This document shows positions 20,660 through 50,459 of a stretch of DNA of 64,000 nt, in pieces (position 1 is the stretch's first letter; each line of letters begins with the position of its first letter). Made by a program: the position numbers and the translations under genes. Where the stretch lies: NCBI RefSeq assembly GCF_056746865.1, contig NZ_JBWKMP010000002.1, one strand, 5' to 3'. The notes beneath the pieces are model-generated. The model did no database searches and was not told the DNA's origin. It saw only the letters and a list, made by a program, of their open reading frames with translations. This stretch comes from a plasmid.

Positions 20660-21089
20660 GGTTATGACCTTTTTGCACTGAAAACCGACTTTTACGCATA
20701 TATGTAAACTTTACGCATAATGCGTCCATTTCATTGTTATACGTACAATTCTATCCTTTGTTTCAATCCTAAGCTAATGTTTGTTTACTTTTTTATGATT
20801 TTTTGTGAGCTTAACTTGCAGATGAGAGCTCAGACTCTCTAGTCCTTAATGCTCATTCTTTTTAAACCACGATTCTTGTCGACTTCTCTACGCTTTGACG
20901 TTATGAGCTCCATTAATGAATCTTAGCCTACCCTATTTCTTGCTTAAGAATTTAATTCTTCTCTCACCGGTGTGCTGATTTAAGTTTTCCTAACTGTGAA
21001 TCGTTGTCGTCAGTCCAGTCTAAAGATATGAGGTGTCATTTTCTTTGAGTAGGCCCACTACGAATTATGGGAGCAAAGTTAGCGACCTA

Positions 21090-24055: not shown

Positions 24056-24417
24056 GTCTTCGGTGAGCAAATTGGATAAATTTTCATAAACCAAAGCGTT
24101 AATATTAAACTTTTAGAAGAATGATTAAAGGATATTAAGTTTTGTATGCAATATGACACCAGTGATCTGTTTTCACTAATAATGCCGCGCTCCTTTGATT
24201 ACCTTTGGTAAACAAAAATGTAATTTACGTGAATTTCATCTTATAAAGTCAGTATTGATGTTATAAATTTTGTTTACTTAATGCGTACACAACCTAAATG
24301 CGATTTGTAATTATGTCACTGTTTTTAAGCCATATTAATTATAAAACCAAAATTTGCAGCACAGTGATGAACTCATTAAGTCATAACCTCATTTGTTTAC
24401 TTAAGGCATACAATAAA

Positions 24418-24452
24418 AAACCAGATTCTTATGAGACATCTGGTTTAATTGT
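24418..24452 (-). terminator. Rho-independent terminator downstream of traC
   Basis: Hairpin CCAGAT-(loop)-ATCTGG; on the minus strand it is followed by a T-run, just 3' of the traC stop. Confidence 0.6.
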
Positions 24453-24473
24453 TTTTGCTTGAAGATATTTACT

Positions 24474-27146
24474 CTACGCGGCCAAACCCGCTGCTACTTC
24501 TTGAGCATAGAGAATTTCTATTGCCTCGCCATAGCTACAATTCTCGCGGCTTTGAATTTCCCATAATTTACTCCTGTCAGCACTATCCGTAGTAAAACAA
24601 AGCTCCATTTTCCGGTCTACGTATAACCGACAGATCTCGTAAGTTTCGAACCTGACTAACATCTCTGAAAACACCTTTTTGACTGTACGAATATTTTTCA
24701 TTCGTTCATATTCTGCATCTGAAGTAGAAAAATATTTATTAGCCTTCATTGCTTCAATGCTTTCTTTTTCTTGTTTCATGATTATCTTCCAAGGCGAGTT
24801 AGCAGTCAGGGCCCGGCCAACAGAAGAAGTAAAATAATCTTCAAACGACTGTGTGATACAGATGCCAGCGCAGTTTGTTTTCCTGAACCTACGCCATGCC
24901 GCTTCGAGGAAGGAAGAGAAGAATTGGTTTGATTGATTTCCGGCACCTGATGAATTATCAGGACGAATGTACTCCCAAGCTTCATCTAGGATGAACAAGC
25001 GACGACGCCCATCTTTTTTGATGAACATTGCATGCTGAGCAGCCTGAATGATAGACATTAAAACAACTGTCTGAAGGTGGGGGGTGCCTTTTAGCTCCTC
25101 CAGTTCCAAAACAATAAATCTGCTGTCTATTGGAGGCAACGTATCGGTAAACCGGTGCCCATAAATTCCACCTTCGCACCATGCTCCGAGTTGCTCCCCA
25201 ATATCCTTTATACGTTTGTCTTCATGCTTCTTGCAACGCAGAGCAAAGCCGGTTATTGAACCGGTCCGACCTGATTTTCTGGATTCCTGGTACTCTTCTG
25301 CAATAAGCTGAAGCATCACTGATTGTTGATAATCATCGATAAGGCCTTTCTCTGAAGCCATAATTTTTAGCTGATTCAGAACCATTATGGTCTGAGCAAC
25401 TTTGTCTTTTTCTGCATCGTTTGAAGTTGATTCACCGGTAAATTCAGGTGCTTCGTTAAATACATCGTCGTTAACAGTGATGTCAGTTAGGAAGGCAAAG
25501 GGATTTAGGGTGAAGTCAGGGGTTTTACCGAAATCAATAAATTGACTGTTTGTATATTGTTCCGCAATCCCCTGGTAAGAACGCCCCACGTCCACTACAA
25601 AAACTTGAGCACCATCAGGATCATCATCTGGGTATTCGTTTTCTAAAAAATGCTTAAATGTTGAGCGATAATGAACGAGGTTATTAGATCGCGGTCCAGC
25701 TCCAAGATAGTTATTGATTAGATATGCTGTCCAGAATGACTTGCCTGCACCTGACGTTGCACCAATAACCATGTTATAGCTTGCAGAAGTCTTGAAAATA
25801 TCAAGTCCCATGAGTTGACCTTCACGAGAAACTAAACTCAGTACTGGTCTATCTGTATTACCTTTCCAGGGCCCAAAGATCGGCGTCATATGAGCCGCTC
25901 CGGTGTTGCTCACTACTTCGGATCGGTCAAGGTCGAAAATTGTCTTTGGGTCATTGCACATTGGCAGACATGACATAAATGACGGGAAAACGATAAAGGA
26001 ATCATCTGCTACTTTGACCCGGCTTTCGAGGTAAAAGGATTTGAGATCGTTAGCTGCTGTCTGCACAGAATTGGCATTACTACCCATAACAGTGAAAGTA
26101 AGATACCCTCTTAAAAGCTTTGCGCCATCCTCAAGCTCGCGAGTTACGGCCATGTAGTCATTATCCATATCCCGCAGGCGAGGGCAGAATGTGACAACTG
26201 AAGGTATACTTGCCTGTTTATTAGTGATTGCTTTGTAGCGGACGTTTTCTTTTGACAACTTGAGCGGATCGGCAAACTGAACAGTCTGAGTGATCATAAA
26301 TGGGCTGAAAATTGTCTTACGTCCATGCATCCAGTTAACTACTAACTCATACATACAACCGAAATTGACGTATTCAGGAAACTTTACAACGGAAAGTTGT
26401 TTGAAGTAACGATGCTCAGATTCGTCGTCACTTTGTGTGACTGATGAGAAATGATTTTCTGTGACTGTATACTTACGGCCGGGAACGTTAACTTGTTCAT
26501 TAAGCCTTTTCATAGTGTTAACGTCTATAAAACCTTCAGCCCACCGAGAGTTCTTTCCGGGGTTTACGACCTTATCTATACAATAGAGCCAGTTTTCTGC
26601 ATCGACCTTAAACGGATGCAGTCCAATCGTAATTAACTTACTTACAAGTTCAGAGTAAAGTGAATCGATACGCGAATGTTCCAGCTCGGTAGGAAGGGCA
26701 GACTGTAAAGGAATCGATAGCGAGATCCATACCTGAAAATCCCTCAACATAAGGTTATCATGATCAGGTTTTAAAGGCTTATGCATACTTCTGTCGTAGT
26801 AGTCCAACTGATAACCATTAAGCAGATCTGCTTTAAGCTTATCGTTCCCAGTCATACGCCCACCTCGCACAGCTGACCAAGCACTAAGCTGTAAAGTCAA
26901 GTCTGGCAATGCAGTCAGAGATATTTGACAGACAGTATCTGTAGGAAAATCCATTTTGAACATTTCAGCAAGAACATCTTGCTGATTATCAAAAACTCCA
27001 GGTGATGGATTACAGATAAACATAAACCCTAATCTGTTGCCATCAATCAAAAAATAGTGAGTCCCTGCTAATTGATCGTAAACAGGGATAAACCCACCTA
27101 ATTGATGGCGATTTAAACCGCTATTGTAATTATTGATAGCTTCCAT
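24474..27146 (-). CDS. traC: Conjugative type IV secretion ATPase, TraC/VirB4 family
   Basis: 890-aa ORF with Walker A (GATSGAGKS) and a downstream Walker B-like hydrophobic stretch ending in DEAW; size and position (after the TraV-like gene) are typical. Confidence 0.85.
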   Translation of the reverse strand: MEAINNYNSGLNRHQLGGFIPVYDQLAGTHYFLIDGNRLGFMFICNPSPGVFDNQQDVLAEMFKMDFPTDTVCQISLTALPDLTLQLSAWSAVRGGRMTGNDKLKADLLNGYQLDYYDRSMHKPLKPDHDNLMLRDFQVWISLSIPLQSALPTELEHSRIDSLYSELVSKLITIGLHPFKVDAENWLYCIDKVVNPGKNSRWAEGFIDVNTMKRLNEQVNVPGRKYTVTENHFSSVTQSDDESEHRYFKQLSVVKFPEYVNFGCMYELVVNWMHGRKTIFSPFMITQTVQFADPLKLSKENVRYKAITNKQASIPSVVTFCPRLRDMDNDYMAVTRELEDGAKLLRGYLTFTVMGSNANSVQTAANDLKSFYLESRVKVADDSFIVFPSFMSCLPMCNDPKTIFDLDRSEVVSNTGAAHMTPIFGPWKGNTDRPVLSLVSREGQLMGLDIFKTSASYNMVIGATSGAGKSFWTAYLINNYLGAGPRSNNLVHYRSTFKHFLENEYPDDDPDGAQVFVVDVGRSYQGIAEQYTNSQFIDFGKTPDFTLNPFAFLTDITVNDDVFNEAPEFTGESTSNDAEKDKVAQTIMVLNQLKIMASEKGLIDDYQQSVMLQLIAEEYQESRKSGRTGSITGFALRCKKHEDKRIKDIGEQLGAWCEGGIYGHRFTDTLPPIDSRFIVLELEELKGTPHLQTVVLMSIIQAAQHAMFIKKDGRRRLFILDEAWEYIRPDNSSGAGNQSNQFFSSFLEAAWRRFRKTNCAGICITQSFEDYFTSSVGRALTANSPWKIIMKQEKESIEAMKANKYFSTSDAEYERMKNIRTVKKVFSEMLVRFETYEICRLYVDRKMELCFTTDSADRSKLWEIQSRENCSYGEAIEILYAQEVAAGLAA

Positions 27147-31769: not shown

Positions 31770-32559
31770 AGATGGGCTTAAAGATGTCAGTAACTGAAAT
31801 CATCGCACCGGGAACATCAAGCGGTACCAGGGTCAGGTTATAGGTCGATTCAGGTACCTGATCTTCCGACAACATAATCCCGATTGGTTTATCGGTATTA
31901 GTTGAAATAAAGACATCGCCACCATTAACAAATATGCTTGCCTCTTCAGCAGGGGTAGAAGTGCTGACAGAAGCATTCTTGAAGCTGGTCGATATTCTGT
32001 TTTGAAGTCCTCGTGAAACTGGCAGTACCACATTCCCACCAGGCGGCACATTTACACGCTGAACTTCTTTATATCGGTTACGAGCTTCGACATAAAGTTC
32101 ATCGGCTTTTGACGTGGCGGTCGCATTGGTTGCATTCTGCTGGGAAGAGGTACCTGTTGGTCTCCCATAGCTATCAATTGCACCAGAGCGGGTCTGTGCG
32201 TCAAATCCGGGGAGACTAGGATTATTTGATAATGCTCCAGTAATAGCGCTTACCGCAGGCGAAGCATTGCTGGCTGGGGAAAGTTGCACGGTAGGGAGAT
32301 CAGTTGTAGGTTTTTGTCCCTGCGCATTACCGGCTTCACTAAGGTTTGTTTGTGCACCTGACTGTTCAGAACCAGCTTGACCCGGAATAATGGCTTTTGC
32401 AGCTCCATTCTGAAATCCGTCAGCACCAACTGGCATTACAACCGGGTTATTAATTGTTGCTGGCAATTGGTATTCTTCAGCGATTACGCAGTTCGAAGTC
32501 GTGAGCATGATCAATGCGGTAATTGCGTTGAACCCTAAGCCCTTTTTTTTAATCATCAC
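31753..32559 (-). CDS. Exported protein, possibly TraK/VirB9-like
   Basis: 268-aa ORF with a signal peptide (LGFNAITALIMLTTSNCVIA); position between the TraE-like and TraB-like genes matches F-type order (traA-L-E-K-B-V-C). Assignment by synteny. Confidence 0.45.
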   Translation of the reverse strand: MMIKKKGLGFNAITALIMLTTSNCVIAEEYQLPATINNPVVMPVGADGFQNGAAKAIIPGQAGSEQSGAQTNLSEAGNAQGQKPTTDLPTVQLSPASNASPAVSAITGALSNNPSLPGFDAQTRSGAIDSYGRPTGTSSQQNATNATATSKADELYVEARNRYKEVQRVNVPPGGNVVLPVSRGLQNRISTSFKNASVSTSTPAEEASIFVNGGDVFISTNTDKPIGIMLSEDQVPESTYNLTLVPLDVPGAMISVTDIFKPIYASQT

Positions 32560-33344
32560 TTGTTACCTGTAGACGGTGGCGGATTATCCAGCGTTGCCAG
32601 TTGCTCTTTGCCGTTTATCGTAATTTTTTTAATATTCGGTGTTCCGGAATATTGATTTACATATGCAATTCTTGGGCGACCATTTTTCATCCCGAGAACC
32701 CATTCATAAGTCCATTTCGATGATTCAGTTTTGTCCGGAACATTTACAAGTCGAGTCGTTTTGGTACCCCAGACATAGACCATGTCATTTTTTGGATCAA
32801 AGTAAATATCATTAGGCTTAAAGGTCTGCTCAACACCACGAGCCTGCATGATATTTATCTGCTCCTGTAAAGACTCACTCGTTTTAGCCTGTAGTTCAGG
32901 TGAAAGGGCATCGAGGACATAGGCCGTCACAAAGGAAATATTAGTTGGATTAATATTCCCTAAAAGGGTACTAAAAAAGAGAGCCCATTGTGTTTTATAA
33001 GATTCCGATGCTTTGTTACCAACAACCGTGATCTCTTCATTCATGTTTGGAGGGGTAACAATCGTCACTGGGTCAGTGAAAAAAAGAATCTTTGCAACCA
33101 ATAACCCAATGACGGCTATTGAAACAGTATTAATGCGGATAAGTTTTGTATCACGATTAATCAGGGCGCTGTATGTAATTCCAGCACCTGACGCTTCAGC
33201 TTGTGGGCTAAATCGTTTTTTAATGTCCAAAAAACGTCCCTTAGCACTTTCATCTTTCTTTACGTATGACTGTTCAAGATCACCGTTTTCATCCTTTTTA
33301 GATTTTTTGAAAAAAGGGATGTTAATGCCACTTAGCATTTTCAT
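32556..33344 (-). CDS. Bitopic inner-membrane protein, possibly TraE/VirB8-like
   Basis: 262-aa ORF with a single transmembrane segment (TVSIAVIGLLVAKILFF); position consistent with TraE. Assignment by synteny. Confidence 0.45.
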   Translation of the reverse strand: MKMLSGINIPFFKKSKKDENGDLEQSYVKKDESAKGRFLDIKKRFSPQAEASGAGITYSALINRDTKLIRINTVSIAVIGLLVAKILFFTDPVTIVTPPNMNEEITVVGNKASESYKTQWALFFSTLLGNINPTNISFVTAYVLDALSPELQAKTSESLQEQINIMQARGVEQTFKPNDIYFDPKNDMVYVWGTKTTRLVNVPDKTESSKWTYEWVLGMKNGRPRIAYVNQYSGTPNIKKITINGKEQLATLDNPPPSTGNK

Positions 33345-33355
33345 TCATAGCTCCA

Positions 33356-33706
33356 TCAAGAATACAAATCTCTGATAAATGGATCGTTGAAATAACGGCT
33401 ACTAAAAACTGCTTTACCTGGCAAAAAACCGAGCCACCAGAGTCTGTGTTTTAGCAATCCTCTTATTCCTGACTCAGCTGCTTTGTTATACGCAATCCAA
33501 TATACAACCGCTACTACAACAGAAAACCCGAAGCATTCGAAGATATTCCCAAATGCAACCAGAATGAATGCAAGCCCTATTTTTTTTGCATCCCAAAACA
33601 AAATCAGTAGAGGCATGTTGATCCTGAAAGGGAATCTATAGGTATGCTGAGGAACGTCGTTCTGCTTACTCATTAAAAATCCAGAGAGGGGGATGAACCC
33701 CCTCAT
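33356..33706 (-). CDS. Small membrane protein, possibly TraL-like
   Basis: 116-aa hydrophobic ORF immediately downstream of the pilin-like gene, as in F-type order. Confidence 0.45.
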   Translation of the reverse strand: MRGFIPLSGFLMSKQNDVPQHTYRFPFRINMPLLILFWDAKKIGLAFILVAFGNIFECFGFSVVVAVVYWIAYNKAAESGIRGLLKHRLWWLGFLPGKAVFSSRYFNDPFIRDLYS

Positions 33707-33723
33707 GCATGATTAACAATAAA

Positions 33724-34104
33724 TTACAGCGGTACGCCAGCATCCATAAAGGTGCTGATAATTTTCTCGCCGTTGGCCATTACCAGCATCATGAATAATG
33801 AAACCAGTGCCAGGCCCGGGTTAGACTTAAGGACAGAGAAATATACGCTTGAGATCAACATCGCGGCTGCCAGAATTTTGCCCGGAGCTCCAGTCATACT
33901 TTCACTCATGTATGACCAAATATCTCCCAGTGCCCCATCATCTGAACCCGCATATGCCAGACCGCAAAAAAGCACGGTCAGCAGAACAAACAAAATCACT
34001 TTTGCGCTTTTTGTTTTAAAAAGTGCAGCCGTGTTAGATTTCTTTTCACTAAGGCCAATATTTAAAGAAAGTTCCATAATTACTCCGTGTAGATTTGAGT
34101 TCAC
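33724..34104 (-). CDS. traA: F-type pilin precursor (TraA-like)
   Basis: 126-aa ORF with a long leader followed by two hydrophobic segments; first gene of the mating-pair-formation operon. Confidence 0.55.
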   Translation of the reverse strand: MNSNLHGVIMELSLNIGLSEKKSNTAALFKTKSAKVILFVLLTVLFCGLAYAGSDDGALGDIWSYMSESMTGAPGKILAAAMLISSVYFSVLKSNPGLALVSLFMMLVMANGEKIISTFMDAGVPL

Positions 34105-34499
34105 GTAAACGCGAATGAATAATACTTTTTTATTCCGATCCTTCCGTTCGCATAAACCCCCTTTTTTTAACGTTTAGCGATTGGTGAATTTTTAAGCAAA
34201 GGGGCCTAAAGCATAATCTTTGAAAAGTACCAGTGAACGCTTAGTAAAAGTTTGAAAGAGGGGAGGGGGTAAGATTACGTTAAGCTCAATCCTGAAGCTG
34301 ATGAGACTCCTCAAGCATAAAAGTCACTTTTGATGGTTTGAAAAGCTCTAACTAGATATCGGGCAGGTAACTAAGCTTCATATCTAATCTTTTTTGTTCC
34401 CTTAATATCTATCTCTTGATTCTGAGAAGGCCGCATATCACTGTGCTCCCTGGTTCGGCAACTATCAGTTGGAGAAACTACATACAATCCTCGGCCGGT

Positions 34500-35100
34500 G
34501 CGTCATTCATCTAAATGCCTTTTACACCTCTGGGCGTGAGTGGGACTTTGTCTTGTCCATATGAACATCATTCATTCGAATGCTTTTGGCCAATGCTATT
34601 TAAGCAAATGCTTTCTGGCTGAGTCCTTTTGCGAATGAGTCTTTGATATAACTGCATGAATTTTGGGTTGTTTGGTGTACTAACAAAACAAAGGCATTTC
34701 TTTGAATGCCATTGGAGTTGTGATGCTTCTGATATTTTTTTGATCTCATATCAAACACATAGTCCTTCTGATGCCCAATGTCATAGATGTCTTGGACCAT
34801 TCTCGCTCTTAACAAAGCTGTACTGTGTGTCATTCGACCTAATGCCATTCACCAAAATGCCTTTTTATACCACTGCATAGCTATGCTCGGGATACAGTGG
34901 CAAACAAAAGCATTTCAATGAATGATTTTTTGGGATACCGACATCAAAAGCATTTGTATGAATGTAAGAGGCGTAATCCACAAAAGGCATTCACGTGAAT
35001 AGAGTGCGCACGAAACCATCTTGCTCCACGGCATTTAATGAATGGGCTAGCATGTACGCTTGAGCCAGAAAGGCATACAGATGAATAGTCAGGAGTTCGT
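34500..35100. repeat. Iteron cluster (about 10 copies of an ~18-bp AAAGGCATTT-N3-TGAATG-like motif) adjacent to a rep gene
   Basis: Repeated motifs such as CAAAGGCATTTCTTTGAATG, CAAAAGCATTTCAATGAATG, CAAAAGCATTTGTATGAATG, CAAAAGGCATTCACGTGAATAG, CGGCATTTAATGAATGGG and AAAGGCATACAGATGAATAG occur at irregular 40-60 bp spacing in both orientations. Confidence 0.75.
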
Positions 35101-35225
35101 TTGAAAAGTTACTTTTTTGCACATTAAGCCGAGATGTAAGACCAGTAGTAAAAGAAGCACTAAGCATAGCACTGATAAATAACTTATTTTTCAGCATGTT
35201 ATAACCAGTGCATACCTGGTAGCTT

Positions 35226-36101
35226 TCAACCTTGTTTGGCGAGGGCCAGCTTAGGGCTTCTTTTGAAGATCTGAAATTGTATGTCGCGACCTTTCTTAAC
35301 TTCTTGATAATCGAGATATCCGATAGATTCAAGTTCCCGCATTGCTTTACGAATTATCTGGTTTTGCGTACGAATAGGGGTTGTAAGAAGCAACCTTTCC
35401 CTCAACCGTTTCATATTAACGAACAACGTACCAGCTGGCATTGCTTCAAAATAAATATAGAGAGATTGCGCAGCTTCTTTTTTAGCCAAAATGTATAGAA
35501 CCTGAAGGCTTAACAATGTCTTATGGTCGTAACGATACAGTTCCCACATAGAAGGATCCCCAACCAACTCAACAGTATCGCTTTTTGGATCAATCATAGC
35601 CTTCTGCACCAGATGCGTTACTGTGAACCGACCACTCCGAGAGTCTGAGAAGGCAAGCACTACCGATGCAAGGTTCATTAATGACTCTTTAAAGCGCGCA
35701 CGAGTTCGTTTGTTGATGTTTGTTGAACTGATACCACACATCTTCGCAAACTCGTTAAAAGTCAGGGTAATCTTCTCGGAAGTAAAACCATATTTACTGA
35801 AAGCCATGATGATCCCGAGCCAGCACTTAAAGTCGGTAGACATAGATAGTTTGACACCAGTTATCTTGATGTCGTCATAACCCTCCGATCTTGCAATTTC
35901 CATACACGAAAGCTCATCAGAGGCATCAACTTCAAAGTTTCGGTCGCGGTTTTCTTTTGTGCCGACAGGGGTAAATACACTCAATCTCAACAGGGCCACG
36001 GGCTGAACCGACTTGGACGAGTTAGGCGTCAGTTGATAAGTCTTACCTGATTCATTACTGGTTACGTCAAAAGGATGGATTAACTCGTTGTTTTTAATCA
36101 T
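35226..36101 (-). CDS. Iteron-type replication initiator (Rep_3/RepE-like family)
   Basis: 291-aa ORF flanked on both sides by iterons; the size and iteron context fit a theta-replication initiator, and it has a frameshifted paralog at 49297..50383. Confidence 0.7.
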   Translation of the reverse strand: MIKNNELIHPFDVTSNESGKTYQLTPNSSKSVQPVALLRLSVFTPVGTKENRDRNFEVDASDELSCMEIARSEGYDDIKITGVKLSMSTDFKCWLGIIMAFSKYGFTSEKITLTFNEFAKMCGISSTNINKRTRARFKESLMNLASVVLAFSDSRSGRFTVTHLVQKAMIDPKSDTVELVGDPSMWELYRYDHKTLLSLQVLYILAKKEAAQSLYIYFEAMPAGTLFVNMKRLRERLLLTTPIRTQNQIIRKAMRELESIGYLDYQEVKKGRDIQFQIFKRSPKLALAKQG

Positions 36102-36159
36102 TAACTTAACTCGTCGGTGATAAGATTTTCATTTGGCAAACTGTTTATAACATATTCTT

Positions 36160-36265
36160 GCAAATGCTTTTTACGCATTAACCTAAATGCCATAAGCATT
36201 CCAGTAAATGCCTTCCTTATTCATTCAAATGCTTTTCGCATGCATCCGAATGCCGGATCCTTTCA
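36160..36265. repeat. Second small iteron group upstream of the rep gene (likely operator/autoregulation site)
   Basis: GCAAATGCTTTTTACGCAT, TAAATGCCATAAGCATTCC, GTAAATGCC and CATTCAAATGCTTTTCGCATGCATCCGAATGCC resemble the 34.5-35.1 kb motif. Confidence 0.6.
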
Positions 36266-36577
36266 TAAAGTCACTATAATCAATGAGTTAAAGATGCCGT
36301 GATCTTTACTTGAACTCTATTGATCTTTAGTGATCTAAAGAATTGATCTATCCTGTTGAAAACAATGATAAGTCCATATAAAACAAGGAATAGCGCTCCT
36401 TTAACAATATCTACAGATCGCAAACGGAAATGAACGAGGGTCTACTATCATTGTTTTATTCAAGACAGTTTTTATTTTAATTTTATTAAGCAAATTTTTT
36501 GAGTTTACCTTTTAGATGTATCAGCCCTATTTGGCAAATTTGAGGTTCATGTATCATGTAGTAAACAGGAGGAAGAT

Positions 36578-37633
36578 ATGAACAACAGCAAACATACAGT
36601 CATTGAAGTGGATACTAATCTAGTTGAAATTGAAAAGGGATTTAATCCCCGAGAGGCGGTAATCGGAGATTTGTGTTACGAACAAGAACCTGTCAAGTCG
36701 ATGATTGTGTCAATCAAACAAGCCTTTAAGGAAGGAAGGCAGGTTGATATGATCAAGGTCGTAAAAAGAAAAGGTAAATATTTAGTTCGTCAAGGTCATA
36801 CTCGTTTTCATGGCTTAAAATTAGCAATTTCTGAAGGTGCTAATATTCCAAAATTATCTGTTATCCTAATCGATTATAAAAACGAAATTGAAGAATACCT
36901 TGAGAACCTCGATGGTAACAGAAGCAATGGGCTAAATCCGGTTGGGCAAGCTCATGCATTAGCTCATGCTGTTAGTCTCGGGTATTCGGTTGAAGAACTA
37001 GCAATGCGATATCAACGATCAACTACCGCAATTCGTAATATGCTAAAAATCCTTGATATGCCATTAGAGCTTCAACGTTTGATTAGCCTAAATCTAATCA
37101 AAAAAACGCTCGCCATTGAAATAATGTTAAAATATTCCAACGATCACAAAATGGTTTTAAAACATATAGAAGGTTTCTTACCTGGCGTTAAGAATATTGA
37201 GACTACAACGAGCAAAATTGTAGGCATACCTGAACACAATGCAGCTGGAGCAGGACCAGACACCTTAAATAAAGGCGGACCAGAAAAGAAAAATTCGGCA
37301 GTCACTCGTAAGACTTTGGGTATTAAGCGCCTCTCGCATAAGAAAACAGAACGGCTAAAATCTGAATTTCTTGAGCTTGTGGAAAGTACACATACGGAAT
37401 CTATAACGAATACTCAAACAGAACTAAAATTTGGTAGAGATAGTGCACACTTGTTCAAAAATGTTAATAGTAATAATGTAATATTTTCCAATGATGGTGT
37501 TCAAATAATCTTGAATGATGAAAAGCTAAATATTTTATTGTCTTTACTTAACGACGAAAATACAGCAATCATTGTTTCTAAACCAAAATTAGAAGAGCTT
37601 CTGGAAATTCGAGATCTCCTTAAGGAATATTAA
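36578..37633 (+). CDS. ParB/sulfiredoxin-like N-terminal-domain protein (KorB/ParB-like DNA-binding protein or nuclease)
   Basis: 351-aa ORF with GFNPRE and VRQGHTRFHGLKLA motifs (resembling the ParB-domain GxxR box) and a downstream TAIRNMLKI helix-turn-helix-like segment; paralog of 40844..42007. Confidence 0.5.
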   Translation: MNNSKHTVIEVDTNLVEIEKGFNPREAVIGDLCYEQEPVKSMIVSIKQAFKEGRQVDMIKVVKRKGKYLVRQGHTRFHGLKLAISEGANIPKLSVILIDYKNEIEEYLENLDGNRSNGLNPVGQAHALAHAVSLGYSVEELAMRYQRSTTAIRNMLKILDMPLELQRLISLNLIKKTLAIEIMLKYSNDHKMVLKHIEGFLPGVKNIETTTSKIVGIPEHNAAGAGPDTLNKGGPEKKNSAVTRKTLGIKRLSHKKTERLKSEFLELVESTHTESITNTQTELKFGRDSAHLFKNVNSNNVIFSNDGVQIILNDEKLNILLSLLNDENTAIIVSKPKLEELLEIRDLLKEY

Positions 37634-37650
37634 AAACGAGGATTAGTTGA

Positions 37651-37851
37651 GTGATTAAACCTATAAAGCTGACTCTTATCGATAATTATAGTGATTTGCT
37701 TCTAACTCATGAAGTCCTTAAACGCAACATGGAAGAGTTAGAACACGGTAAACGTTTTGATCAATTTCCTGAAGGGCATGACCACTATGAAAAAACTGTG
37801 AAAGAAGCTGTAGCAATCGTAGAGGCACGTTTGGAGGTGTTTCGAAAATGA
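37651..37851 (+). CDS. Small hypothetical protein
   Basis: 66-aa ORF, stop overlapping the next gene start; no motif. Confidence 0.3.
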   Translation: MIKPIKLTLIDNYSDLLLTHEVLKRNMEELEHGKRFDQFPEGHDHYEKTVKEAVAIVEARLEVFRK

Positions 37852-38564
37852 AATCTCTTTTCTTTACTCTTGATGGTCATATGGTACCAGCCTCAGTGAA
37901 TGTATCACTTAACGGAGATGGAAATTATTATGCACCTATCGAAAGAGAATGTAACGAATGTGCGGGCACAGGCCACAAAGGGGCTGATTTATGTGAAAAG
38001 TGTCATGGGGTACAAACAGTTGGACCCATTATTGAAAAATTAGTGGCACTAGAGCCAATTACCTTTCTCGATAACATTCCGGAACTGCGTGTTAACCCAA
38101 CACTCGAAGCATGGAAATCCAGAAACCACGTCCTTATTGAGAAAGCAAAAAAGGCTAACACTAAGTTTTCTAATAGTATATTGGCGCAATTAGACAATAA
38201 CCGTTTCTTGACAGAACGCCAGCTGGATTGTTTCTTTACAACTTTTGATGTGATGTTGTCTGAAACTCCGGAAAATGAACAAGAAATTTTAAAACATAGC
38301 TACAATATCGGCCAGGTCATAAGCATTGAACTAACATTTACTGAAGTCAGGGCCGCGTACGCAAAAAGTAAAGGGAGTTATTTTTTTACATTTACTGGTA
38401 AAGTTAGAAATGACGGGATCGCTTTAACGGCCGATAAACAGGATCACATTTTATTGGGTGAACGTTATCATTTGACTGGAAAAGTCAGAAAATTCTATGA
38501 ATTTGATTCGAAAAATTATGCTGCAATAACAGTTTTTAAGTTAAATAAACTCCAAGACAGTTAA
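37848..38564 (+). CDS. Zinc-finger-like protein of unknown function
   Basis: 238-aa ORF with a DnaJ-type zinc-knuckle-like cluster CNECAGTGHKGADLCEKCHG. Confidence 0.45.
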   Translation: MKSLFFTLDGHMVPASVNVSLNGDGNYYAPIERECNECAGTGHKGADLCEKCHGVQTVGPIIEKLVALEPITFLDNIPELRVNPTLEAWKSRNHVLIEKAKKANTKFSNSILAQLDNNRFLTERQLDCFFTTFDVMLSETPENEQEILKHSYNIGQVISIELTFTEVRAAYAKSKGSYFFTFTGKVRNDGIALTADKQDHILLGERYHLTGKVRKFYEFDSKNYAAITVFKLNKLQDS

Positions 38565-38795
38565 ATGTTTTTGCTGCTTAAATATAGAGCCAAGACTTTA
38601 ACTGTCGTTAGGACTCACTCACGTAATATTGTTGCTTACGCAATGGGTTTTATCCCTCATAAAGATCTGCGAGTATAAATCTTTTACATTTAAATTCCCC
38701 TCTATCAGAACCTTTTCTATTGTAAAAAAATGATAATCTTATTAATTATAATTTTAATTTTTTGTATACCAATACCATACAGTTAAGGCTAAAAG

Positions 38796-39653
38796 GTGAT
38801 GATGGAGATGGACTTTAAAATGCACAATGATCTGGGTCTCGGTTTCATTTGTAAAAATGCAAGAACATCGTCAAAGCCAACGTTAAGAAAAGTTACTTTT
38901 CCGGTAAGCGCATATGAAACGTCTAAGCTTTCTTTAACCGGTTTTCAATGCCCCACAGCCTGCCGTTTTCCTTTTTTTGTGCTATGCATGATAATCCATA
39001 ACCATCTTTCGTCTGCATGCCCTATCACCCAAAATGAATGTTCAAATCATATCTCGCAATTTTCTATCGACATTAAAGTACAAGATTGGCTTAGCCGTTC
39101 AAGAGTAGCGTTTATTGATTTCCATAATCTTAGAAATACAGATAAAACCACTTTAATAACAGTGAACCATCTTGAAGCTTTACTTACTGTTATGTCGACT
39201 ACTCTTGTCGCTTATGTTCCATATTCAAAAAAGAGACTAAACTTTAGCTTTCTAAACTCATTCACTTTGTCTAAAACTTCTCAAAGTTACACATTAACTT
39301 TCCCGGTAGTTCTCAGTCCGCTTTTAGATGCTCTTGGCGACTTCATTCAGGAATGCATAACCGAAAAATTGTTAAAACGACGAAATTCGAATTTCATGGT
39401 TTACGAGTATCTTAAACGTTCAGGCCAGAGCTCTCATAAAGTGGAGGACATTAATAACGACTTACAGCTTAAAAGTCTAAATATAAGACTTATGAGCGTC
39501 CTTACTGGCCTTTCTCAGCAAGGACTCATTTCATTTATTTGCGAAGGAAAGAGGGGCGACCGGAGAATAGAAGAGCTTCAGTTTATACCTTATGTTCAAC
39601 GAACTTACCCTGAGGTATTAACTTTTGAGGAATGGATTAGCCTAGTTGATTAG
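38796..39653 (+). CDS. Hypothetical protein
   Basis: 285-aa ORF; no recognisable motif. Confidence 0.35.
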   Translation: MMMEMDFKMHNDLGLGFICKNARTSSKPTLRKVTFPVSAYETSKLSLTGFQCPTACRFPFFVLCMIIHNHLSSACPITQNECSNHISQFSIDIKVQDWLSRSRVAFIDFHNLRNTDKTTLITVNHLEALLTVMSTTLVAYVPYSKKRLNFSFLNSFTLSKTSQSYTLTFPVVLSPLLDALGDFIQECITEKLLKRRNSNFMVYEYLKRSGQSSHKVEDINNDLQLKSLNIRLMSVLTGLSQQGLISFICEGKRGDRRIEELQFIPYVQRTYPEVLTFEEWISLVD

Positions 39654-39661
39654 AATTTACT

Positions 39662-40495
39662 CTATTTCAGCACGGCCAGTATTTCTGTTTCCGTTTTCCG
39701 TGTATTCGGCTTACTTCCTACGGATCGGTAAGCGCTGAGTCTGTGTATGACGAATCCACGCTCTTCATAGAGGCCCAAAGTGAATGATGTCAGGCTATTT
39801 GATATCGCAACAGCAGCGCCTTTTCTGTGAGCGTCAACGAGCATATTTGCTAACAGCACGTGGTCGCTTTGGCTGAACGGTTTACCATCGTAACTGACAA
39901 AACTAGTTTTGCTTGTTTTGTCATATGGCGGATCACAGTAAATCTGATCTCCTTCACCGGTTGCGGCCAGAGTCTCCTCAAAACCAGCGGTGATCAGTTC
40001 AATACCTGAAAGACGAAATGAAAGGTAGTCTATTTTATTGAGGTCAAGCTTCAGTTCTGTATGTTTCCCCCACGGCACTGAATAGATTCTTTCTGAGTTA
40101 TAGCGGCACATACCGTTATAGCCCAGGCGATTCAGGGAGTAAAACAAAGCCGCTCTTTGAAGCGATTGACCAGAAATACAGGTTTTGTTGAAACGGTCCC
40201 TCATCTCATAGTAGTCCTTTTCGACAAAGGTTTTATCCGCCAAGTTTTGGACCTGATTTATAAAGTTAGTTTTCTGTCTTTGAATAGTCCTGTATAGGTT
40301 GATCAAGTCTGGATTGCTATCTGCAAGCAATGCATTTTGTGCAAACATGTTCAGAAAAACGGCACCACCGCCTATAAAGGGTTCTACCCACCGGCAACTA
40401 TGATCGTGTGGGTAGTGATGGCTGATGAAAGGCATCAGTTTCGTTTTTCCACCAGCCCATTTGATTATCGGCATGTGTCTGAGATGTCGAGTCAA
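39662..40495 (-). CDS. dam: Orphan DNA adenine methyltransferase, Dam family
   Basis: 277-aa ORF with the N-terminal KWAGGK and FIGGGAVF SAM-binding motifs and the catalytic DPPY motif (IYCDPPYDKT); no adjacent restriction endonuclease candidate. Confidence 0.8.
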   Translation of the reverse strand: MTRHLRHMPIIKWAGGKTKLMPFISHHYPHDHSCRWVEPFIGGGAVFLNMFAQNALLADSNPDLINLYRTIQRQKTNFINQVQNLADKTFVEKDYYEMRDRFNKTCISGQSLQRAALFYSLNRLGYNGMCRYNSERIYSVPWGKHTELKLDLNKIDYLSFRLSGIELITAGFEETLAATGEGDQIYCDPPYDKTSKTSFVSYDGKPFSQSDHVLLANMLVDAHRKGAAVAISNSLTSFTLGLYEERGFVIHRLSAYRSVGSKPNTRKTETEILAVLK

Positions 40496-40843
40496 AGTGT
40501 CTATACCTGAGAGAGAAATTTAGGTGCTGGTATCGTACCTAACCACGGGCTTTAACTAATAACTTAGGGAGCAAAAAAAAGTTGTTTAAGACGCACAGTT
40601 TTGACTTTCAGCATTTCGGATTTATAAGATTTTTCCTCACTTATACCTGAACTTTATGTTTTGGATTTATGTATTTGTTTATGAAGCGATTTTTATGCCA
40701 TCACAAGTAATGGGGAGCCACCTTTTTTTGTAAAAAATCAGAATAGGCTCAAAAAGTACCTTTTTTGCGAAAAATTATGAATTTTTTTTTCGGTAGTATC
40801 CCCGCTACGCAGAAAGTAAGCAGAAAAATGTAACGGAGCCCCT

Positions 40844-42007
40844 ATGAGTGTTTTACTGACAGAACCTACACAGCAAGCTAATGACAAGGTCTTTAAAACG
40901 GCCCATGTTGCCTTTTCAGTAGTTACTGGCACAGGCCGTTACGTCACTGGGCTTAAAGAGTTCCGTGATGCAAACCCTGAACTTTGTACTGAAGTAAGTG
41001 ACCAGAAAGCATGGGCTATCCACCCTTCAGTAATTCAGGTCACGCCAGGCTTCAACTCCCGCGAAATGGGAATGGGTGACGATTACTATAAGCTCCCTGA
41101 GGTTGAAGAACACATCTACAACATCAAGAATGCCTACATTCGAGGTGACTATGTAGACCCTATCCGAGTACGTGTCATTGATGGGGTACCTTTTGTTCGC
41201 CAGGGGCACTGCCGTTTAAAAGCCGCAATGATGGCATGTGATGAAGATCATGACATCACAATCCTTTGCGTTGAGATTAAAGAAGATGAAATTGGCTGTG
41301 AGCTCGCGACCATTGATGGTAACCGTGGTCTTGCGCTTTCTCCTGTTGCGCTTGGCGAGTCCTATCGTCGCCTACATTCTCTTGCTGGCTGGTCACTCGA
41401 ACGAATTGCTCAACGTGAAAATAAAAGCCCGACGACCATCAGTTCTCTTATCCGCCTGACAACCTGTTCTGTTGTTATCAAGAAATGGATTCATGCTGAC
41501 GCTATTTCGTATGTTAACGTGCTTTCACTGATCGATGAGCTCGGCGAAACAGAAGCAATTTCACGTATCAAGAAGATGATCGCAGAACTTGAGCAGGCCG
41601 ATGCGAATGGCATCACGGTGAAAAAAACCCAACATGGTCAGGTACGAGTCAGACCTTCAGACTTCAAGCCAGCACGGATTCCGCCGGTTATTGCCACAAA
41701 AGCCGTAGAAGGCGTCAAACTCATCACCACCAGCTTATTACAGAAACTGGGGGATATTGAATTGCCGGAGCTGACAGATTCAAGTGCTGACGAAGAAATC
41801 AACATTACGTTGAACCGCAGTACTCTGGAGATGTTGAGAAATCTTTCAAAAGAGATCACAGAATCAGAGAACAAGCAGCTTCGCCGTGCGGAGAATCGTC
41901 AGGCAAAACTTAATGGTGAGAAGCCAAAATACCCACGTAAAAAAAATGCTAAGAAGGCAGGGGAAGAGACCGATCAGGATACTGACCCACAGCCGGACGC
42001 AGAATAA
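40844..42007 (+). CDS. ParB/sulfiredoxin-like N-terminal-domain protein, paralog of 36578..37633, with a charged C-terminal tail
   Basis: 387-aa ORF with GFNSRE and VRQGHCRLKAA motifs and a PTTISSLIRLT segment colinear with the paralog; Lys/Glu/Asp-rich C-terminus. Confidence 0.5.
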   Translation: MSVLLTEPTQQANDKVFKTAHVAFSVVTGTGRYVTGLKEFRDANPELCTEVSDQKAWAIHPSVIQVTPGFNSREMGMGDDYYKLPEVEEHIYNIKNAYIRGDYVDPIRVRVIDGVPFVRQGHCRLKAAMMACDEDHDITILCVEIKEDEIGCELATIDGNRGLALSPVALGESYRRLHSLAGWSLERIAQRENKSPTTISSLIRLTTCSVVIKKWIHADAISYVNVLSLIDELGETEAISRIKKMIAELEQADANGITVKKTQHGQVRVRPSDFKPARIPPVIATKAVEGVKLITTSLLQKLGDIELPELTDSSADEEINITLNRSTLEMLRNLSKEITESENKQLRRAENRQAKLNGEKPKYPRKKNAKKAGEETDQDTDPQPDAE

Positions 42008-42254: not shown

Positions 42255-43346
42255 ATGTCATCTCTTGATTCTGAAGCTAAACCCGATAATGCAGGTCACA
42301 GCGTACTGGCTTTAACAACCTCTCATAGCCTGGTGGTTAGCTCTCCTGAAACATTTCTTCCAGATATGCGCAAAGAGCTCGGCATTATCGCGGATCTTGT
42401 TGAGTCCTATAATGATGAACTCTGCTTGTTGAAACTCATGGCTGTCCAGTTCAAAACCCACAATCACCAGAAACTTTATTCTTATCTCTCAGGCTACAAC
42501 CACAGCATCTCAGAAGCGGATGCTTTGTTCGCAGAAAACGCTCTGAGATCAGAATACTGGAAATGCGTTATGGCACTCACTGATGTTTTGCCTATCATGT
42601 CGGATGCCAAACGTAACGAATGGGATAAGCAGTTTACGGCCGACCGTTATATTATGCCGCCTCAGGTGATCCCTGATTTCACAGCTGACGCTGTAGTGGG
42701 CACAGTCGTTGCTTTGCTTAATGACCGCAATCAATTTATTAAAGAAAGGGTTTACGACGTCTTCCAGTCTCTGAGCCGCAGTCACAAGACAAACAAAGCT
42801 TTTGGGTTCTCCACCCGCATGATCACTACCGGAGTTTGCGAGCCGTCTAAATACCCCTGGCAGAAATTAAGGGTGGATTTTAAAGAGTCTGGCATTTCAC
42901 CGCTGAGCGAGCTCCGCGTTATATGCGCATTCTTCCGTGGCGAACAGGTGAAGGCGATCCATAACACCAAATCATTGGTTGAGGCGTTGGTCGAACATGA
43001 GGGGTTCAGAAAATGGATCTGCATCGATGGCAACAGTATTCGTTTCAGGGTTTACAAAAATGGATCAATGCATATTGACGTCCACCCTGATATCGCCGAG
43101 CGGCTTAACAATATTTTATCAGCTATCGTACCGCTGGCATTACCTGCCGACCGTATGGCTCATAGCAAGAAATCTTTGGAGGCATTCCCTGTACTTAAGC
43201 AGTGCATCGACTTTGATACCCGGATGCAGCTTTCTGAACTGATGTTTAAAAATGACGGGGACAATAAATGGAGTTGCTGGACATCTTTAGGGTCTCTAGC
43301 CAACGCAAATCTTCGAGTGTTGCCGCTGACACCCTTCGGTTCTTAG
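42255..43346 (+). CDS. Hypothetical protein; first gene of a duplicated two-gene module (paralog of 57097..57861)
   Basis: 363-aa ORF; N-terminal region shows similarity by eye to 57097..57861 (SPETFLPDMRKELGIIADLVE versus SPEKHRMFMADLGRVVAE). Followed by a methyltransferase-like gene, as in the other copy. Confidence 0.45.
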   Translation: MSSLDSEAKPDNAGHSVLALTTSHSLVVSSPETFLPDMRKELGIIADLVESYNDELCLLKLMAVQFKTHNHQKLYSYLSGYNHSISEADALFAENALRSEYWKCVMALTDVLPIMSDAKRNEWDKQFTADRYIMPPQVIPDFTADAVVGTVVALLNDRNQFIKERVYDVFQSLSRSHKTNKAFGFSTRMITTGVCEPSKYPWQKLRVDFKESGISPLSELRVICAFFRGEQVKAIHNTKSLVEALVEHEGFRKWICIDGNSIRFRVYKNGSMHIDVHPDIAERLNNILSAIVPLALPADRMAHSKKSLEAFPVLKQCIDFDTRMQLSELMFKNDGDNKWSCWTSLGSLANANLRVLPLTPFGS

Positions 43347-43946
43347 GGGCAACAGTAACAAAATACGATGTGACATTTTCCTATGATCCGTGTGAGGTTA
43401 TTCGTTACATCGGCCAGATAGGGGAGATGCCTGATATTGTATCGCATCAGTTTTACCCTTCATCTTGCCGAATCAGCGAATATGATATCTTCCCTGCTTG
43501 GTGCAGGGGAAGGGGATACCCTCCTGGAGCCTAATATTGGCCATGCGGATTTGCTTAAATCATTCCCTGCCGGTGTGATCGTTACTGGCATCGAGCTTGA
43601 TACTTTGAATTGCCTTATCTCCCGGGCTAAGGGATACGATACGACAGAAGCTGACTTCCTCACATGGTCTAAGTCTAATCAACAGAAGAAGTTTGATTAT
43701 GTCGTGATGAACCCACCTTTTGCCGATAACCGGGCCAGGCTGCATCTCCAGGCAGCTGCATCTCATCTCGCAGCCGGGGGATCTCTAGCAGCCGTTCTTC
43801 CATTATCTCTTCAGGGGCTCGATAACCTTTTGGGGGAAGAATTCCGGACGGAATGGATGGACGTTTTTGAGAACGAGTTTGAAAACACGACCGTTTCGGT
43901 TCGCATCCTGTACGCCGAACGTATTCAACAAGAGGAAGTCCTATGA
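43268..43946 (+). pseudogene. Small NPPF-motif SAM-dependent methyltransferase, apparently frameshifted (paralog of 56255..57079)
   Basis: Two overlapping frames (43268..43534 and 43437..43946) together align with the intact paralog: ...QFYP in the first frame, then LLGAGEGDTLLEP (motif I-like) and DYVVMNPPFADN (motif IV) in the second. The frame switch lies near 43455-43470. Confidence 0.5.
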
Positions 43947-48189: not shown

Positions 48190-48479
48190 AGCAGGGCTGT
48201 TTTGCTGAAGCACAACGGCCGCCTTCTGATGCGCCGTAGCCCATGTTGTTGCAAATCAGTCCGACGTTCATTGCGTAAGTAACGCTTACTGCGGACCATG
48301 GTAGTGATTAGACTCACTACCATGGTCATTTCACCACATATCTTCTCTGCATTGCTCTTGTTGGGCAGACTAGTAACTCGTCACTAAATTGCAGCTTTTG
48401 TCTTGCTAAGTCGCTGGTATAACTGCACTACGAAATCGTCAAAAGATTTTATCCCTCATGTAGATCCAATAAATGATCC

Positions 48480-49100
48480 CAAAGGTGCCAGAGAGTACAA
48501 AGAAGATCCCGGTACGCTGTAGGCCGCATGGTTACTGGGCTGGAGCATTGTCACTGACAACAGTAGCGACATAAGTGACAACGGGAGTGACTTAAAAGAC
48601 AATGGTAGAGACTATTTCGACGTTGGTAATGATTTTAAGTGACAATGGTAGTGAGGTTAGACTTAAACTTCCACTGTGAGGTAAGGTGACTCGCATTATT
48701 TAAATAAATCATTACTTTCAATTACTTGCGACACGAGTCTGCATGTATGCTTCTATTTCTCAAAAATTTATCCACCGAAAATGCCTGTGGCTGTGATTTA
48801 GCTTTGACGACAGTTTTTATCAGGGAGGCAAGTTGAGACCTGTATAAGAACTAAGCATTTATTTATCCCCATTTTCCACAAGGTAGTTCCAATAATTAGT
48901 ACCTTAGTGTTCCTGATAGATCAAAAGAGATCCCCGCTGCCTCCAGGCCAGACGGCACAAGGCCTGAGACGTGATCAGTGACAACAGTAGTGATTATTTT
49001 GACATTAGTAGTGATTATTATAACGTTGGTAATGAGTTTTTTGACATCAGTAGTGATCAGAGCGACAATAGTAGTGACTTTTCATTAGATCTTTTTAACT
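48480..49100. repeat. Degenerate iteron-like repeats (GACAAYRGTAGTGA core) upstream of the second rep gene
   Basis: Motifs such as CTGACAACAGTAGCGACATAAGTGACAACGGGAGTGAC, AAGTGACAATGGTAGTGAGG, GTGACAACAGTAGTGATTATTTTGACATTAGTAGTGATTATTATAACGTTGGTAATGAG and GCGACAATAGTAGTGACT share a core with the array downstream of the gene. Confidence 0.7.
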
Positions 49101-49296
49101 TGATCTGATCCGTTGTTGATAAGAGTTGCAGGTCATTGTATGCAAAGAGTTTTTGCCAAGTTTTAATGAGTGGAGTCGTTTTTTTAGGTAGAACTTATGC
49201 ACAGATATGGATCATCACAATGATCCATCCAGTGACATAGAGTTCGCTGGGGCTTACTATTCACCAATCTGTTTACACATTCAGTGATAACTTATT

Positions 49297-50383: not shown

Positions 50384-50459
50384 AGTTAACCCGGCGGTTT
50401 AGGCTCCGGGTGCTAAATTACTTCTTCGATTTTCGTTAGTCCCAGCCCGCTCTTTCACG

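Follow-up and report, generated by a model that had tools for sequence, protein, structure and literature searches.

The replicon at 34.5–36.4 kb of the window (the whole 64-kb stretch of plasmid DNA that was analysed) is built around repHIA, a gene on the minus strand that is flanked on both sides by repeats of a 19-bp iteron with the consensus AAARGCATTTNNNTGAATG. Upstream of the gene lie a compact iteron cluster, a group of GATC (Dam) sites and DnaA-box-like 9-mers, and downstream of it a longer iteron array extends towards the pilin gene trhA:

33724..34077, minus strand: trhA, H-pilus pilin precursor of 117 aa, which opens the Tra2 AC operon and adjoins the replicon without belonging to it
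34078..34503, minus strand: spacer between replicon and trhA, defined by alignment with R27 and pMB3888B
34504..35087, no single strand: downstream iteron array, from motif search and weight matrix; its ten iterons, five in each orientation, are at 34504, 34569, 34597, 34690, 34831, 34846, 34906, 34946, 34983 and 35069
35027–35044: variant iteron with a 2-nt spacer, part of the downstream array
35226..36101, minus strand: repHIA, intact open reading frame of 291 aa for an initiator that binds iterons; WH1 and WH2 domains are predicted (Pfam, homology, AlphaFold2)
36142..36150, minus strand: DnaA-box-like 9-mer TTATAAACA, one mismatch, separating the start codon of rep from the nearest iteron
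36153..36257, minus strand: promoter-side iteron cluster, from motif search, weight matrix and conservation in R27 and pMB3888B
36153–36171, 36176–36194, 36197–36215 and 36218–36236, minus strand, in the sense of rep: four good iterons of this cluster, spaced 21–23 bp apart
36239–36257, minus strand, in the sense of rep: degenerate fifth iteron, conserved in IncHI1 plasmids
36301..36348, no strand: four-site GATC (Dam) cluster (36301, 36322, 36332, 36345) in an A+T-rich stretch, invariant in IncHI1
36354..36371, minus strand: tandem DnaA-box-like 9-mers, TTATCATTG then TTTTCAACA

The initial annotation had described an intact iteron-type replicon with a 291-residue Rep, and both points hold. 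The open reading frame is uninterrupted, iterons occur on both of its sides, and the Rep-family profiles, a failure of which would have counted against the reading, support a replication initiator of the Rep_3 type (PF01051 + PF21205), with scores above the Pfam gathering cut-offs for Rep3_N (WH1; 30.3 bits, cut-off 22.4, E = 6e-7) and, marginally, for Rep3_C (WH2; 21.9 bits, cut-off 21.1, E = 2e-4). The protein is identical to Rep of R478 at 290 of 291 residues (99.7%), shares 86% identity with RepHI1A of R27 and about 45% with RepFIB-type RepA proteins, and aligns with RepA of P1 over residues 20–287, or 92% of its length, at 44.6% identity (E = 1e-66). An AlphaFold2 model of moderate confidence (pLDDT 76.7, pTM 0.73), obtained from a six-sequence alignment, predicts a fold of two winged-helix domains, as in RepE, pi and RepA. 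In a Foldseek comparison of this model with the PDB the top match was to domains 2–3 of RctB (E = 1.6e-8, TM 0.53), further top matches being RepE (2z9o, E = 2e-5) and a Rep WH1 domain (6h24). A sequence search of the PDB with Rep gave no match at E ≤ 1, and no NCBIfam model matched either this protein or the second Rep of the window, RepHI2. Some plasmid records give the gene the name ‘trfA’, which is without profile support; identity with TrfA of RK2 (IncP) was rejected, the Pfam TrfA profile reaching 21.0 bits, below its cut-off of 22, over a partial stretch only.

The locus is real and ordinary: R478-like IncHI2 plasmids carry it as their RepHIA replication module, which has been characterised before. 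In R478 itself (NC_005211; Page et al. 2001; Gilmour et al. 2004) all iteron offsets are equal to those of the window, one base differs in one iteron, and there is essentially no difference within the replicon; the flanking genes also agree, with trhA on one side and a ParB-like open reading frame and dam on the other. Of the 1119 plasmid records that contain the 2.1-kb segment, mostly from Escherichia, Salmonella and Enterobacter, 1110 match it with an identity of 99% or more, and in more than 1,000 IncHI2 plasmids the identity is 100%; for the Rep protein, 1108 plasmid records reach 99% or more. Replicon typing, proposed at the outset as a check, placed the segment-bearing records examined in IncHI2A, with MOBH and MPF_F. 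The nearest complete record found was NZ_CP031190, and the window represents a slightly different IncHI2 lineage from that of R478.

R478-like plasmids carry two iteron replicons, RepHIA being one of the pair; in the literature it also appears as RepHI1A(R478) and repHI2A. The R478 replicon has been cloned and is reported to be autoreplicative and to express incompatibility with IncHI plasmids (Page et al. 2001), and the repHIA replicon has been proposed within a minimal IncHI2 backbone (PMC5034289).

The iteron is concentrated at this locus far beyond expectation. With up to three mismatches allowed, AAARGCATTTNNNTGAATG is matched 18 times across the 64 kb of the window, where 2.78 ± 1.70 matches would be expected; this number was reached in none of 100 shuffles, and 15 of the 18 fall within 34504–36236. 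The remaining three, at 1239, 20448 and 61712 (three mismatches each), are at chance level and were excluded from the counts. A position weight matrix derived from the iteron sites gave scores of 18–30 bits within the locus, whereas no position elsewhere in the window exceeded 12 bits; such scores are circular for the sites on which the matrix was trained, the background scores being the informative ones. With 10–11 iterons downstream of the gene and 4–5 upstream, the originally reported division into about ten on one side and a smaller cluster on the promoter side is borne out.

It is extremely improbable that these repeats are mainly regulatory sites of the transfer operon (for TrhR/TrhY or H-NS, for example) and not Rep iterons. 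The array does end about 430 bp upstream of trhA, and in R27 repHIA and trhA respond oppositely to temperature, with repHIA up 2.4-fold at 37 °C and trhA up more than 14-fold at 25 °C (PMC7366339). However, copies of this 19-mer are also present upstream of rep, where iterons classically lie, the motif is absent from the other Tra regions of the window, and the conserved 130 bp closest to trhA are without an iteron.

As Rep iterons, the upstream repeats form part of a module whose layout is maintained across IncHI plasmids. They lie at −135 to −70 from the rep ATG, with number, spacing and position kept in R27 and pMB3888B, and the modules of IncHI2 and IncHI1 match position for position (DnaA box at −261, four GATC sites, 4–5 iterons and a box at about −49, the last with one mismatch and at an equal offset in R27 and pMB3888B). 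R27 (IncHI1; Newnham & Taylor 1994; repHIA = R0036) thus has an equal iteron consensus, equal offsets in the upstream module and the same place beside trhA. The non-coding origin elements of IncHI1 and IncHI2 show 78% mean column identity, with the GATC sites and iteron cores invariant. A density of four GATC sites per 60 nt is found at just two places in the window, upstream of repHIA and upstream of repHI2; an extra GATC, at 36256, falls within the degenerate fifth iteron. The tandem boxes are near-consensus in R27 (TTATCCACG and TTTTCCACA at this position), whereas those of IncHI2 are degenerate: TTATCATTG is poor, with three mismatches to TTATCCACA, and TTTTCAACA is one mismatch from TTWTNCACA. 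A scan of the minus strand with consensus promoters and terminators returned no sigma-70-like rep promoter, and a relaxed scan among the upstream iterons gave weak, non-conserved candidates only, none of them convincing; no rep promoter is claimed.

DnaA boxes, GATC sites and iterons occur in the order known from P1, with whose oriR–repA–incA region the locus is collinear: upstream of rep come tandem DnaA boxes, then phased GATC sites, then five iterons of 19 bp that recur about every 21 bp, and immediately downstream of rep follows an iteron array of mixed orientation. The annotation of P1 oriR has five Dam sites at the equivalent position, and the five incC iterons contain PrepA. The P1 DnaA boxes, TTATCCACA and TTATCCACT, are followed by GGATAGATC, which is shared with the window at the junction of DnaA box and GATC cluster. 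In incA of P1, 3 + 6 iterons stand in opposite orientations, and the window array is likewise mixed; it is irregular and about 590 bp long, compared with 285 bp in P1, and is followed by trhA where the P1 array is followed by parA. The P1 iteron GATGTGTGCTGGAGGGAAA is unrelated to AAARGCATTTNNNTGAATG, so DNA specificity and incompatibility group differ, and the locus is a relative of the P1 replicon outside its incompatibility group (IncY). Because the conserved DnaA boxes and GATC cluster are situated there, the promoter-side cluster most likely combines the roles of origin and operator, in the manner of incC in P1. Taken as a whole, the 34.5–36.4 kb segment is very probably the RepHIA replicon of the IncHI2 backbone, of the P1/RepFIB theta type, with the promoter-side module as its origin.

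The downstream array, by the same homology, is likely to govern copy number and incompatibility, as incA does in P1. Its number, spacing and orientation of iterons vary between IncHI1 and IncHI2: R27 has a larger array, of three inverted iterons and then about 15 at 43–44 bp spacing, compared with 10–11 at irregular spacing in the window, and IncHI1 plasmids have about 19–20 downstream sites of the same motif, mostly in the run spaced at 43–44 bp. Three open reading frames, 34600–34848, 34656–34880 and 34991–35332, were dismissed as spurious, being built of iteron sequence in an array without conserved register between IncHI1 and IncHI2.

An origin within this large array, with the small cluster acting as an autoregulatory operator only, is unlikely. 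Such an arrangement exists in RK2 and R6K, iteron plasmids whose origin lies apart from the rep promoter, and it would fit the location in the array of five zero-mismatch iterons, the best matches to the consensus, and of a perfect DnaA box, TTTTGCACA, beside it at 35115–35123. That box, however, is missing in R27, and the DnaA boxes and GATC cluster that are conserved in IncHI1, IncHI2 and P1 flank the small cluster. The variability of the array would be unexpected for an origin because an origin needs phased, co-oriented iterons, and the homologous P1 replicon, which has a detailed GenBank annotation, has its origin at the promoter-side cluster. Insertions of IS2 and ISVsa5 split the array in relatives with an intact rep, a weak argument since RepHI2 could sustain such plasmids. 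The initial annotation had seen a classical origin/operator arrangement in the two clusters; both clusters exist, but their roles are probably reversed, the small one being origin and operator and the large array serving copy control.

The second replicon, RepHI2, lies at 48.4–52.2 kb of the window and corresponds to RepHI2A of Page et al. and to repHI2C of later authors. Its Rep is a paralog of the RepHIA protein (43% identity, E = 1e-83). The core of its iteron, TGACAACGGTAGTGA, has 46 matches against 1.15 expected, nearly all in the repHI2 region at 48293–52214, and these repeats bear no likeness to the RepHIA iteron, in line with the original statement that the two rep paralogs have completely different iterons. 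Like RepHIA, RepHI2 is preceded by a module of this kind, in which DnaA boxes (TTATCCCCA and TTTTCCACA) and GATC sites accompany five iterons that recur every 21 bp; unlike RepHIA, it has downstream repeats in 81-bp units, of which Tandem Repeats Finder gave 9.2 copies, its upstream module is duplicated, and its gene carries, in the window, a private frameshift from a 2-bp deletion at 49.7–49.9 kb. If this frameshift is real, RepHIA would be the sole working IncHI replicon here.

In an alternative reading RepHIA is silent or vestigial: RepHI2 or some other replicon replicates the plasmid, and the iterons of RepHIA do no more than express incompatibility. IncHI plasmids are multi-replicon, and either RepHI1 replicon of R27 can take over replication (PMC4853401); in addition, pSI115-1 is maintained with an IS1 insertion in repHIA at 35420–35428. 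A silent RepHIA is nevertheless very unlikely in the window, where the frameshift falls in repHI2 and not in repHIA, and where the repHIA frame is intact and matched by the 1108 near-identical copies in other plasmid records. The conservation of the non-coding origin elements between IncHI1 and IncHI2, the autonomous replication reported for the R478 region and the transcription of repHIA in R27 (PMC7366339) likewise argue for a functional replicon. At least one natural relative, with IS1 inside the gene, does without RepHIA.

On the transfer side of the replicon, TrhA is 65% identical to its R27 counterpart, for which a structure has been published (PMC11722321), and matches the NCBIfam model TraA_gammapb with E = 1.5e-8, below the cut-off; trhL and trhE come after it (Pfam TraL and TraE). 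The replicon had been said to abut the pilin gene directly. The two are adjacent, but the wording was slightly overstated, as about 426 bp separate the iteron at 34504 from the trhA start codon at 34077. The roughly 130 bp of this spacer proximal to trhA are the conserved leader and promoter region of trhA (AC operon), and the remainder is IncHI2-specific. The order rep, iterons, trhA, trhL, trhE, trhK is common to R478, R27 and an IncHI1B plasmid, and every IncHI1 and IncHI2 plasmid examined has the replicon in this place beside trhA, in a conserved backbone order that has been published, so the arrangement is no peculiarity of the window; the adjacency is the ancestral order of the IncHI backbone.

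The downstream array is co-oriented with read-through from rep, and within it a palindromic iteron at 34690–34710 is followed by a T-run and resembles a terminator. Purely as speculation, and with little probability, the array might couple replication control to transfer, Rep-bound or handcuffed iterons insulating or modulating the AC-operon (trhA) promoter; a coupling of this kind would fit the opposite temperature responses of repHIA and trhA in R27.

In the mechanism that we propose, largely by homology with P1, the 291-residue winged-helix initiator would bind the 19-bp iterons, and the origin would consist of the tandem DnaA boxes, the Dam-methylatable, GATC-rich A+T stretch and the five iterons, which succeed one another at intervals of about two helical turns. 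Iteron-bound Rep, together with host DnaA, would open the DNA at this promoter-side module, with a probable dependence on both Dam and DnaA, and Rep on the promoter-side iterons is expected to repress the rep promoter, providing autoregulation. The 10–11 downstream iterons, which would not themselves fire, may titrate Rep and pair with the origin iterons (handcuffing); titration and handcuffing would together keep copy number low and express incompatibility. Because IncHI1 plasmids share the iteron, the RepHIA replicon is also the likely basis of the cross-incompatibility between IncHI1 and IncHI2.

Correct recognition of the locus annotates the window as IncHI2 backbone, from which plasmid biology gains nothing new. 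In Salmonella, E. coli and Enterobacter, IncHI2 plasmids are major carriers of mcr-1, mcr-9, blaCTX-M, carbapenemase genes and genes for heavy-metal resistance; repHIA serves among the markers by which these plasmids are typed. For the replicon itself, collinearity with P1 oriR–repA–incA gives a concrete and testable division between an origin and a control array.

The initial annotation had read this locus as an iteron-type replicon placed beside a pilin gene, and that reading is essentially correct: it is close to certain that the locus is the RepHIA replicon of IncHI2 plasmids, an already well-known replicon in its normal context. The 2.1-kb segment 34300–36400 is at least 99% identical in 1,110 of the 1,119 plasmid records carrying it, with top matches at 100%. 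The carriers, found mainly in Escherichia, Salmonella and Enterobacter, are mostly predicted to be conjugative; the records examined are 150–390 kb long and typed IncHI2A, MOBH and MPF_F, so that replicon typing agrees with the assignment.

Features of the RepHIA replicon and the adjoining pilin gene
33724–34077, trhA, H-pilus pilin, 117 aa, 65% identical to TrhA of R27 (the IncHI1 reference plasmid)
34504–35087, five sites per orientation, downstream array of 10 iterons, 3′ of the rep stop codon
35027–35044, shorter-spacer iteron variant within the downstream array region
35226–36101, minus strand, rep (repHIA), intact open reading frame of 291 aa
36153, 36176, 36197 and 36218, co-oriented with rep, promoter-side iterons 5′ of the start codon, spacing 21–23 bp
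36239–36257, degenerate fifth promoter-side iteron, kept in relatives
36301–36348, cluster of four GATC sites, between the DnaA-like 9-mers and the iterons
36354–36371, in the sense of rep, two tandem DnaA-box-like 9-mers, TTATCATTG and TTTTCAACA

The rep gene is whole, as annotated, and its product is recognized as an initiator by the Pfam profiles Rep3_N/WH1 (E = 6e-7) and Rep3_C/WH2 (E = 2e-4), both above the curated cut-offs. Rep shares 86% identity with R27 RepHI1A, 44.6% with phage P1 RepA (over 92% of its length, E = 1e-66) and about 45% with RepFIB-type RepA proteins. Its AlphaFold2 model (pLDDT 76.7, from a shallow alignment), for which the best PDB matches are RctB domains 2–3 and RepE, fits an initiator with two winged-helix domains. 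Rep differs by a single residue from its counterpart at coordinate 1 of R478, the reference plasmid for IncHI2, whose replicon was reportedly cloned and described as autoreplicative by Page et al. in 2001. That work is cited in passages of PMC4980987 and PMC8490738, and a passage of the latter holds that cloning experiments suggested the R478 long-iteron replicon to be functionally active. Core IncHI2 determinants include repHIA and repHI2, the gene of the second, paralogous replicon, and the repHIA replicon has been proposed as part of a minimal IncHI2 set (PMC5034289); in R27, repHIA corresponds to ORF R0036 (PMC7366339).

Iterons lie on both sides of rep, and their number, placement and significance bear out the annotation. 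Searching the whole 64-kb window for AAARGCATTTNNNTGAATG with up to three mismatches gave 18 matches against 2.8 expected, a count reached by none of 100 shuffles; 15 of the 18 fall in 34504–36236. A weight matrix built from the sites of the locus scores 18–30 bits within it and at most 12 bits in the rest of the window. Because the iteron is internally dyad-symmetric (GCATTT-N3-TGAATGC; copies at 34690–34713 and 36192–36215), certain copies score in either orientation. A T-run follows the copy at 34693–34710 on the minus strand, which scanning marked as terminator-like.

In the direction of rep, two DnaA-like 9-mers and four GATC sites are followed, after some 45 bp, by five iterons; next come a DnaA-like box at about −49, rep itself and the large array. 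The order matches that of the phage P1 plasmid replicon, for which GenBank annotates a site bound by DnaA, then five Dam sites, the incC iterons (five of 19 bp, spaced by about 21 bp, with the repA promoter within), repA and, directly 3′ of it, nine incA iterons. Both replicons carry GGATAGATC directly after the DnaA boxes, and the P1 incA iterons are of mixed orientation (three and six), as are those of the window's array (five and five). The GATC cluster is one of the two densest in the window, the other being upstream of repHI2. IncHI2 and IncHI1 do not differ in the DnaA box at −261, in any of the four GATC sites or in the iteron cores; the 9-mers of R27 read TTATCCACG and TTTTCCACA. The downstream array varies in number and spacing, from 10–11 irregular sites in IncHI2 to about 19–20 in IncHI1, mostly in a run with 43–44 bp spacing. 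Because of this P1-like order, the conserved upstream elements and the non-conserved array, the promoter-side module is, judging from homology, probably the origin and, by analogy, an autoregulatory operator, and the large array probably a copy-number and incompatibility locus, which would act by titration and handcuffing. The iteron arrangement described as 'origin/operator' thus stands, but homology points the opposite way to the roles implied for its two clusters. A Dam-family adenine methyltransferase gene (39662–40495, minus strand), kept in position in R27 and R478, lies 3.5 kb from the putative GATC-rich origin; a plasmid-encoded enzyme of this kind might provide host-independent origin methylation.

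The replicon neighbours trhA, followed by trhL, trhE and trhK; to say that it directly abuts that gene is a slight overstatement, since the trhA start codon lies about 426 bp from the last iteron. IncHI1 and IncHI2 share a conserved stretch of ~130 bp at the trhA end of this gap, which presumably contains the operon promoter or leader. Replication and transfer genes are indeed interleaved, but not as a local peculiarity: the interleaving is ancestral IncHI backbone order with no local rearrangement, because the order dam ... ParB-like ORF, rep, iterons, trhA, trhL, trhE, trhK is common to R478, R27, pSAL4596-1 and pMB3888B_1. In pEGY1-MCR-1, IS421 lies between trhA and trhL (18224–19336 in that plasmid's locus). 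The ParB-like ORF (351 aa, 36578–37633, plus strand), divergent from rep, weakly resembles ParB (Pfam HTH_ParB, E = 5e-6; TIGR00180, E = 2.6e-8, below cut-off) and is kept beside rep in R27, R478 and IncHI1B plasmids, where it is annotated as hypothetical. Elsewhere, between parA (19406–20659) and trhC (24474–27146), a non-coding array at 21064–23606 holds about 10.4 copies of a 249-bp tandem unit (68% matches); it is the window's most divergent stretch relative to relatives and could serve in partition or incompatibility.

Features of the RepHI2 replicon
48440–48655 and 48865–49080, two tandem origin-like modules 5′ of RepHI2
49297–50383, repHI2, complete protein of 362 aa in relatives
50872–51612, downstream 81-bp units, 9.2 copies

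RepHI2 is 43% identical to RepHIA, and the two paralogues have unrelated iterons, as had been noted: the RepHI2 repeat core is TGACAACGGTAGTGA (46 matches against 1.15 expected). Its repeats, which are 21-bp iterons 5′ of the gene and 81-bp units 3′ of it, match the long iterons reported for R478 in passages of PMC4980987 and PMC8490738. Each origin-like module contains one or more DnaA boxes (for example TTATCCCCA and TTTTCCACA at 48865–48882), GATC sites and five iterons at 21 bp spacing, and an additional four-GATC cluster lies at 49055–49110. Flanking RepHI2 are three large genes whose products carry Ig-like domains (45733–48189, 52381–54801 and 58395–60812); proteins of such a class are described, in a passage of PMC6764697, as necessary for IncHI conjugation.

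Relative to all relatives, repHI2 has lost 2 bp (AA) at 49797/49798, splitting the reading frame into 190 and 157 aa; the deletion occurs in none of 1,125 plasmid records and none of 274 E. coli records. Either the second replicon is truly inactivated or the deletion arose in sequencing. Against the closest complete plasmid, NZ_CP031190, the window has about 60 other small differences (substitutions and indels; 8567–25128, 31788, 43298–43485, 59983 and 63578), many being indels in non-homopolymer contexts; several of the differences break genes, namely traK (31788), parB (19022) and a DUF4942 gene (43298–43485). Zero differences fall within 31789–40957, which includes the RepHIA region. True inactivity of repHI2 is not claimed because the source sequence, by this comparison, may be error-prone.

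Replication of R27 can be taken over by either RepHI1 replicon (PMC4853401). Three relatives carry insertion sequences in or near the RepHIA replicon.

Natural insertions, in window coordinates
34820–34829, ISVsa5 in pCFSA300-1, within the downstream array
35054–35058, IS2-like element in pD90-1, within the downstream array
35420–35428, IS1 in pSI115-1, interrupting repHIA

These insertions favour neither origin model over the other, and they show that rep and the array are both dispensable in multi-replicon plasmids.
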